NCBI GenBank assembly: GCA_963805975.1
Contig: CAWDVR010000001.1
Span: 352,001 to 416,000 of the forward strand
DNA: 64,000 bases
From: an uncultured Acidobacteriota bacterium
GTDB taxonomy: Bacteria > Acidobacteriota > Thermoanaerobaculia > Multivoradales > SZUA-115
Direction of reading: 5' to 3'
Positions 47,553 through 48,552 of the stretch are shown in pieces. Below the pieces are notes generated by a model. The model was not told where the DNA came from and made no database searches. It saw only the letters and a program-made list of their open reading frames with translations. Positions within the stretch are counted from its first letter, which is position 1, and each line of letters starts with the position of its first letter. The position numbers were made by a program, and so were the translations under genes.

Positions 47553-48017
47553 TCGATCGTCTCGCCGAGCCTGCTCCGCGACGTGGCAGATCGACCGCGG
47601 AGCAGGCTCGGCGCTCTAGGTCGAGCCCTCGCCGTCCGCGCCCCAGACTCCCACCTGATCGGGATCACCGAAGACCGTCGAGCCGTAGAGCGACACCGTG
47701 CGCTCGCCGCCGGGCGTCTGTGCCTCGGCGGCCGCGATGTTGATGCGCAGCGGCTTGCCTTCGTAGTAGCCCGTCCACTGCAGCGTGCACCAGCTGACAG
47801 GCTCGCGTCGCGAGGCTCGGCCAGCATGAGAGGCATCGCTCTCGTCGGCGCGGCTCGCCCCGCTCGCCAGGAGGCAAGCTGCGAGCAGCGTCGCGAAACA
47901 GACTTGTGGAGCGATGCCGGATTCTAGCGCTTGTCCCTCGCCGGTCCTGGCACCGCACCAGACTTTGCGACCGCCCCGTCCGCGGTGGGCGTGGGCGCTT
48001 GAGAAAGGATGCACGAA

Positions 48018-48374
48018 ATGCAGAAGGCGCAGCAGAGTTGGTGGCTCGTGCTCGGGGTTGCCATCGCGGCTCTCATCGCTCTGCCCGGTGCAGCGCAAGA
48101 AGCGAAGCCCACGTCCGACGAACTGGCTGCCTGCGCGGCGGCCCAGCTTCCAGCCCTCCAGACCGAGGGCGAGAGCGTGACCTCGATCGAAGCGGCTCTG
48201 GGGCTCGAGGCGCCGGCCGCCCAGCCACTGACCGGCCCGCCGGGCTCCTGTCCGAAGCCCACCTGTGACGCCCGCGTGCACTGCCTCTACCTGAGCTGTC
48301 CGCCGGGCTTCATCGCGGTCTGCAACGGCGGCCTCGGCGCTGGCTGCGAAGGCACCTGCGGCTGCCGGAACTAG
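48018..48374 (+). CDS. Small secreted pre-pro peptide with a C-terminal 8-Cys domain
   Basis: AAAGGA RBS 8 nt before ATG 48018; signal peptide; acidic pro-region; C-x4-C-x5-C-x4-C-x7-C-x7-C-x3-C-x-C; double stop TAGTAG. Confidence 0.75.
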   Translation: MQKAQQSWWLVLGVAIAALIALPGAAQEAKPTSDELAACAAAQLPALQTEGESVTSIEAALGLEAPAAQPLTGPPGSCPKPTCDARVHCLYLSCPPGFIAVCNGGLGAGCEGTCGCRN

Positions 48375-48394
48375 TAGCAAGGGAGGCAAGGAAG

Positions 48395-48434
48395 CGAGCC
48401 AGCCGCCCCCTCGTGGTGACGGGCGGCTGGCTCG
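48395..48434. terminator. 14-bp-stem hairpin between convergent genes
   Basis: CGAGCCAGCCGCCC ... GGGCGGCTGGCTCG; no clear U-tract. Confidence 0.5.
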
Positions 48435-48552
48435 TCGTGCGTCAGCGGGCGGAGGTGGGCTCCGCGGGCGAAGAGCACCGCGGGCGGCCGATCTCGATCA
48501 GCCGGAGGCATAGCTCGCGAGCCGGCCTCCGGGCCGTTCCTGCAAGTCGGGT

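Follow-up and report, generated by a model that had tools for sequence, protein, structure and literature searches.

A candidate disulfide-rich miniprotein and its same-layout precursors in an uncultured Acidobacteriota bacterium

Introduction

Disulfide-rich miniproteins make up a major class of drug leads and scaffolds; to our knowledge, nearly all that have been described come from animals, plants and fungi. Several architectures recur among them. The inhibitor cystine knot is a threaded knot with disulfides I-IV, II-V and III-VI, the WAP four-disulfide core contains an adjacent Cys5-Cys6 pair (CC), and the precursors of conotoxins and other venom peptides combine a signal peptide and an acidic pro-region with interchangeable Cys frameworks, of which there are many per genome. 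In the portion of the literature available to us, cis-defensins are defined by the CSH motif, in which a CxxxC on a helix is linked to a CxC (PMC5116183), and a 2024 survey lists 74 bacterial defensins, one of them acidobacterial, and reports that the activity of xanthusin-1 is not conferred by a gamma-core (PMC11561630, in part). A free Cys in a pro-region has a described role in bovine pancreatic trypsin inhibitor (BPTI), whose folding it speeds (Weissman and Kim 1992, as cited in the accessible part of PMC549202).

Here we describe a small gene in a stretch of 64,000 nucleotides (hereafter the window) from an uncultured Acidobacteriota bacterium (assembly GCA_963805975.1, contig CAWDVR010000001.1, positions 352,001 to 416,000). 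An earlier reading of the window, referred to below as the original prediction, had described the product as a secreted pre-pro peptide with a defensin- or knottin-like mature domain of eight cysteines. We compared the gene with its homologues, with other precursors of the same genome (G000) and lineage, and with the described miniprotein classes.

Results

The open reading frame at 48018-48374 (+) is an intact, stand-alone gene that encodes a 118-aa protein (P0002). Its GC3 is 0.83, and its codon score is the best among the six frames (+0.07 bits/codon, against -0.20 to -1.09). The excess of RBS-filtered ORFs over a reversed genome (see below) and the existence of homologues that retain all eight core Cys mark it as more than a chance ORF. 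The gene has its own RBS, as had been claimed, which we confirmed as AAAGGA at 48004-48009 (+), 8 nt before the ATG; a second in-frame ATG at 48009 overlaps this RBS. The three parts of the precursor named in the original prediction, namely a Sec signal, an acidic pro-region with one Cys and an eight-Cys core, were confirmed, and the quoted signal and core match the translated sequence exactly. The predicted Sec signal peptide (residues 1-25, 48018-48092, +) consists of a 15-residue hydrophobic stretch followed by Pro-Gly-Ala-Ala, with a helix at residues 7-20 in the AlphaFold model and, by rule, a probable cleavage site after Ala25. The acidic Ala/Glu/Pro spacer that follows (residues 26-75, 48093-48242, +; net charge about -6) is a putative pro-region, is predicted to be disordered and ends in a hydrophobic patch and Pro-x-Pro. 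It carries a lone Cys39 (48132-48134, +) in an Ala-Cys context also seen repeatedly in other, unrelated precursors from this lineage. The remaining cysteines, at residues 78, 83, 89, 94, 102, 110, 114 and 116, lie in the core (48243-48371, +; net charge +1), where they form the framework C-x4-C-x5-C-x4-C-x7-C-x7-C-x3-C-x-C.

The gene ends with the double stop TAG TAG (48372-48377, +), and a GC-rich hairpin at 48394-48436 separates it from the convergent DUF2330 gene. Both elements had been noted before and were found again: the hairpin has perfect 14-bp arms (48395-48408/48421-48434) and a fold z of -2.57, equalled by 2 of 200 shuffles. It lacks a U-tract, a terminator scan returned nothing, and a whole-genome check showed it to be single copy; it is likely to be an mRNA 3'-end stabiliser or a terminator. 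The neighbours of the gene encode a DUF2911-TPR protein (upstream, same strand), a LamG protein, ETF-QO, DUF4097, DUF2330, an RnfD-like protein and two sulfatases. Among the eight neighbouring ORFs scanned there was no RiPP enzyme and no peptide transporter, in agreement with the original prediction. Immediately past the DUF2911-TPR gene, an 18-bp perfect inverted repeat (47563-47613) probably separates that gene transcriptionally from the peptide gene. An open frame at 47616-47900 (-), which runs divergently from the peptide gene, shows a gene-like GC3 of 0.83 and a signal-like stretch; it has no clear start codon and no match in a Pfam search, and it is possibly a small or decaying gene.

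A one-sequence search with P0002 returned no match except itself. A genome search detected an intact homologue in a genome of the same genus (G001) and a relic in G002, and a three-row profile run against 1.84 billion representatives gave nine matches at E<=0.001, which were the query, seven true members and one long low-complexity protein that we excluded from the family. The GenBank records that match the family come from Thermoanaerobaculia. When the search was iterated, the family was found in 16 of 300 genomes of one order of this class, representing 6 of its 12 families; the iteration converged on the same 16 genomes, with an E gap from 4e-17 to 1e-6. No match was obtained in 400 other genomes sampled from the phylum, with 12 candidates scored per genome. 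The set analysed here comprises 30 sequences, three further matches having been left out as duplicates of genome members. No significant match to the family was found in Pfam, NCBIfam, PDB or fold libraries, and the literature listings searched yielded no prior report of the family or of the precursor repertoire described below. The claim of an undescribed family is supported by 30 sequences with eight invariant cysteines.

In alignments of 25 and 26 members, the eight Cys and Gly112 are invariant, and the core follows the pattern C-x3-7-C-x5-C-x4-10-C-x6-10-C-x6-8-C-x3-C-x1-2-C, in which the Cys3-Cys4 loop ranges from 4 to 10 residues. Cys2 is followed by Asn, Asp or Thr in all 26 cores, and Cys3 is preceded by Asp in 21 of them. 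The mean charge is -5 for spacers and -1.9 for cores; 28 of the 30 cores are at or below zero and none reaches +3. In 8 of 9 pairs the cores are more alike than the spacers in sequence identity, and a 95%-identical relative shows six residue differences, none of them within the core (p = 0.07). Crude estimates of core dN/dS (0.4-1.0) are neither clearly purifying nor decisive. The spacer Cys is missing from 20 of 30 members and is thus dispensable, while a ninth core Cys is present in 9 of 30, six of which have no spacer Cys. Other features are scattered over the 26 cores, including a terminal CC (3), a GxC gamma-core-like motif (16) and His (17), the position of which is not conserved. No fixed spacer cleavage motif was found in the precursors compared. 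A Pro-x-Pro lies no more than 16 residues from the core in 10 of 26 members (4.6 expected) and 13 of 30 (6.2 expected), and near the core in 6 of 22 precursors of the window's genome (4.4 expected).

The G001 orthologue is situated at the same DUF2330 locus, and the G297 locus has a DUF2911 neighbour. The orthologue and the DUF2330 gene of G001 are separated by a pair of genes for a multiheme cytochrome and an MtrB/PioB porin (L029:5687-8919). The G002 relic (L002:1501-1617, -) retains only a core, 72% identical to that of P0002, and has lost the start, the signal, Cys1 and Cys4; it is adjoined by an intact, unrelated gene for a signal peptide and a Cys-rich region (L002:725-1087, -). The patchy distribution and this decayed copy indicate that the gene is easily lost.

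AlphaFold gave a pLDDT of 74.7 for the core alone (three alignment rows); for the whole precursor (25 rows) it was 83-94 over residues 81-118, falling to about 45-51 in the spacer. In the model, the core starts with a short strand at 82-83, continues with a helical turn at 86-89 and has a beta-hairpin (99-103/112-117), with no core helix longer than four residues. The structural check proposed with the original prediction thus returned a confident beta-hairpin core, and neither a defensin helix nor a significant fold match. At the weakest level, the library matches are small disulfide peptides, namely tachystatin B (Foldseek, weak, E 4.2), tau-theraphotoxin-Hs1a (profile, weak, E 0.37), BmP02 and actinomycesin.

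For family tests we used the defensin regex and the antistasin and WAP spacing rules, which matched 0, 1 and 0 of the 26 cores, respectively. A cis-defensin (CS-alpha-beta) identity was rejected, as no core has a CxxxC upstream of the CxC or fits the regex and the model shows only the helix at 86-89. An antistasin-type inhibitor was rejected because the fixed C-x3-C reactive loop is absent (1 of 26 fits the pattern), and PF02822 had no match at the P0002 gene. The WAP core was likewise discarded, with an internal CC in 0 of 26 and no Pfam match among 25 members, as was a cationic antimicrobial peptide, with a net charge of at least +3 in 0 of 30; cationic antimicrobial action of P0002 is unlikely. 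The label "defensin" is not supported for cores that have no CxxxC and no helix and are neutral to anionic, nor is a canonical knottin spacing or that of antistasin and WAP.

The original prediction had also suggested scanning the genome for small signal-peptide ORFs ending in C-x-C, and scanning uncovered a large lineage-wide repertoire. We filtered ORFs of up to 200 aa by RBS, hydrophobic N-terminus and a Cys threshold, with the reversed genome as control. With at least four Cys, 44 ORFs passed in the genome (some of them shadow frames) and 2 in the reversed genome; with at least six, the numbers were 29 and 1. By eye, the layout of signal, spacer and core was recognised in 15 genes of G000 besides P0002, one of which came from outside this filter, or about 16 in total. 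These 15 genes have other frameworks and are located at C1:799511; C2:184702, 308598, 532969 and 834596; C3:476479, 647262, 878245 and 889204; C4:525765; C5:386776, 431568 and 521408; and C6:222608 and 223153, the last two forming a tandem pair. A second tier was taken from profile matches, all 31 except the relic, with two antisense frames dropped, and all 30 of those fetched were same-layout precursors with other frameworks.

The pooled precursors (71 sequences) fell into 38 core clusters (BLAST E 1e-5), and the number of core Cys is even in 57 of the 71. One lone spacer Cys was present in 30 of the 71 (18 of 38 clusters); in the equivalent residues of long exported proteins the figure was 39 of 335. 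The second tier was picked by a profile that included spacers, and our definition in part precludes spacers with two Cys. This Cys often stands in a Pro/Ala-Ala-Cys context, and 26 of the 30 precursors that carry it have an even core. Besides a role in folding, dimerisation or tethering are alternative uses for it. Judged from sequence, P0002 appears to be one item in a venom-style library of dozens of precursors in this little-studied lineage, in which a common signal and spacer layout is joined to unrelated cores.

To distinguish disulfides from metal ligands, we compared Cys parity in a crude set of gene and signal predictions of our own (4210 genes, of which 433 were called exported), following a rationale given in the consulted part of PMC7678975. 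For proteins with 3-12 Cys, the exported set contained 87 even and 58 odd counts, versus 329 and 429 in the cytoplasmic set (Fisher p = 2.7e-4), and the even bias of exported proteins was also seen at 1-12 Cys (p = 0.005). Because of this bias and the confident AlphaFold hairpin core, disulfides are favoured over metal, in line with the original prediction, and we consider it quite likely that the eight core Cys form disulfides. As for the oxidative machinery, G000 contains two DsbA-like genes (C4:232270 and C4:467895) and DsbD. Neither DsbB nor VKOR turned up in this genome, which is 96% complete, when it was searched with Pfam or locally with homologues taken from the order, where they are rare (8 and 7 of 61 genomes, respectively). 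It is possible that G000 and its order have a disulfide-oxidising route of a novel type. The DsbA-like gene at C4:467895-468894 (L044:5896-6895), whose product is membrane-anchored (CPAC), lies 70 bp upstream of and on the same strand as a gene for an 86-aa peptide with a signal and 10 Cys, for which it is a candidate dedicated folding catalyst.

Under the alternative that P0002 is a periplasmic metal-binding or thiol-buffering peptide, the eight Cys would ligate Zn, Cu or other soft metals in the style of metallothioneins. The missing DsbB and VKOR would suit this reading, as would the anionic cores, the C-terminal CxC, and the terminal CC, ninth Cys and His found in some members. It is opposed by the parity bias and the ordered hairpin model, by the shifting His position, and by neighbours among which, as far as scanned, no metal-transport or sensor gene recurs. 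Moreover, the 38 frameworks with their mostly even counts fit disulfides better, and a signal peptide argues against a classical cytoplasmic metallothionein. We regard metal binding as unlikely.

We then surveyed the context of 15 homologous loci, taking 5 kb on either side or as much as the contig offered. The 71 of 102 called ORFs that were scanned include no recurrent gene for an enzyme, a transporter or immunity. In 4 of the 15 loci the peptide gene adjoins a membrane Ser/Thr kinase with a TPR ectodomain, paired with an ECF sigma factor in G001 and with an FHA-sigma54 activator in G583, G546 and G365. Four members from family f7 of the order have a common sigma54 promoter, which is absent from 12 of 16 loci; the window's gene is among these 12 and has no kinase module nearby. 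Of the 92 genomes in family f7, six have the kinase orthologue and six the peptide, with four having both (p = 8e-5, kinship ignored). These observations could suggest a cell-to-cell signal, with the peptide acting as ligand of the kinase and inducing its own gene through the ECF sigma factor or the sigma54 activator. However, modules with the same kinase (67-75% identical) head other cargo, which in G574 is another kind of Cys-rich precursor and in G581 an unrelated exported protein of 371 aa, and at a second site of G550 a kinase/FHA-sigma54 module also heads other cargo, so that the peptide is better read as an output of the module than as its ligand. Since, in addition, only two independent lineages show the association and the window's gene does not, we regard a signalling role as unlikely.

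More generally, loci L033, L034, L036, L087, L088 and L089 show a divergent module that pairs a receptor kinase-TPR with an FHA-sigma54 activator. Its sigma54 promoter is conserved, and its swappable cargo includes the P0002 family, a lone-spacer-Cys precursor, the 371-aa exported protein (no Pfam match) and a 56-aa ORF. Within G000, the repertoire shows no clear enrichment close to such regulators (5 of 27, compared with 10.6% for random sites). According to the part of PMC13147305 available to us, the defence of Xanthomonas against amoebae is driven by a kinase-ECF pair; this is an analogy for the P0002 loci and not evidence about them.

Antimicrobial action in the manner of a defensin, by membrane disruption or lipid II binding, would agree with the prepro layout, the small hairpin core, the gamma-core-like motif and the existence of bacterial defensins, including the acidobacterial one in the surveyed list (PMC11561630, in part). 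Yet the cores have neither the CS-alpha-beta signature nor cationic charge, the model shows no core helix of more than four residues, no immunity or transporter gene recurs, and in the same source a gamma-core gave no xanthusin-1 activity; we find this mode of action improbable. A non-lytic antibiotic that binds a target is counted under the reading preferred below. A RiPP precursor modified in trans by bufferin-like MNIO or radical SAM chemistry on its Cys, as a leader-like spacer common to unrelated cores might suggest, is very improbable given the Sec signal, the even Cys counts, the absence of an MNIO (PF05114) from G000 in a search that detects the Caulobacter control, and the lack of a recurring maturase beside 16 loci, where the lone radical SAM neighbour is of the CofH/MqnC type. 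Equally remote is the reading that the gene is neutral or decaying and does nothing at present, for which the G002 relic, a dN/dS not clearly below 1 and the patchy presence (16 of 300) could be cited, but against which stand the intact RBS, signal, cysteines and hairpin, the G001 orthologue at the same locus and a framework invariant across six families of the order.

Discussion

In our preferred reading, to which we assign a probability of roughly one half (0.5), P0002 is a secreted, disulfide-locked miniprotein that acts as a protein-binding effector, an inhibitor or antagonist, and not by lysing membranes. The 118-residue precursor would be exported via Sec, its core oxidised to four disulfides and its spacer removed by a general protease, releasing a miniprotein of about 43 residues. 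This product would bind an external protein target, presumably through the variable Cys3-Cys4 loop and the aromatic face of the hairpin. Where present, Cys39 may act as a built-in thiol-disulfide shuffler during folding. Strand positions and analogy lead us to guess the pairing 78-110, 83-102, 89-114 and 94-116. Several findings count against an effector, namely the ninth Cys in some members, the dN/dS of 0.4-1.0, the lack of a fixed cleavage motif, the dispensable spacer Cys, the lack of a sigma54 promoter and a nearby kinase at the window's gene, a repertoire not clearly enriched near regulators, the patchy distribution, the decayed G002 copy, and the missing DsbB and VKOR, which leave the oxidising route unexplained.

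On a wider view, which we offer tentatively and hold to be doubtful, the order might possess a venom-like arsenal of exported prepropeptides, a dozen or more per genome, with unrelated disulfide frameworks directed at proteins of predators, prey or competitors. Their folding would be aided by a built-in pro-region Cys, their oxidation would need neither DsbB nor VKOR, and P0002 would be one of its founding members. If true, dozens of unclassified frameworks in one lineage of bacteria would open a new supply of scaffolds and would provide a handle on the interactions of uncultured Acidobacteriota with their neighbours. Two puzzles are raised, namely the recurring lone Cys of the pro-region and a disulfide-type bias where DsbB and VKOR were not found. 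The weight of the finding lies in the repertoire, the lone Cys and these missing enzymes more than in the P0002 gene alone. P0002 itself appears to found a family new to the catalogues, one that would work like the disulfide-rich miniproteins of eukaryotes.

Compared with the cis-defensins xanthusin-1, actifensin and acidobacteresin-1, as presented in the accessible parts of PMC11561630 and PMC5116183, the family has in common a signal peptide, a small Cys-rich core, a C-terminal CxC on a (predicted) beta-hairpin and stand-alone genes in Gram-negative bacteria. It differs in having no CxxxC helix, another eight-Cys spacing with a Cys3-Cys4 loop of 4-10 residues, a neutral to anionic core and a long acidic spacer with an optional lone Cys. 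The resemblance to antistasin consists in the C-Px-G ... GC-x3-C-x-C ending and that to WAP proteins in the eight Cys, whereas the residue after Cys3 is not conserved and there is no internal CC. With inhibitor cystine knot peptides (squash inhibitors, spider toxins, tachystatin B) it shares a C-x5-C loop, present in 26 of 26 cores and mostly ending in Asp-Cys, and a small predicted triple-stranded sheet in which the strands 82-83, 99-103 and 112-117 form a strand-turn-hairpin; it differs in having eight Cys and no adjacent CC among the first six Cys of the core, and its matches to tachystatin B and tau-theraphotoxin-Hs1a are of the weakest level.

The lone Cys recalls the BPTI precursor, in which one free pro-region Cys likewise precedes a mature domain with an even number of Cys, a likeness drawn from sequence alone; unlike that of BPTI, the spacer Cys here is optional and recurs across unrelated frameworks. 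Compared by layout alone, the P0002-type genes resemble conotoxin and other venom precursors in their order of parts, their swappable Cys frameworks and their number per genome. They differ from conotoxin precursors in being bacterial, in showing no sequence homology to them, in having no dibasic cleavage site, and in showing, for close pairs, stronger conservation of the core than of the spacer.
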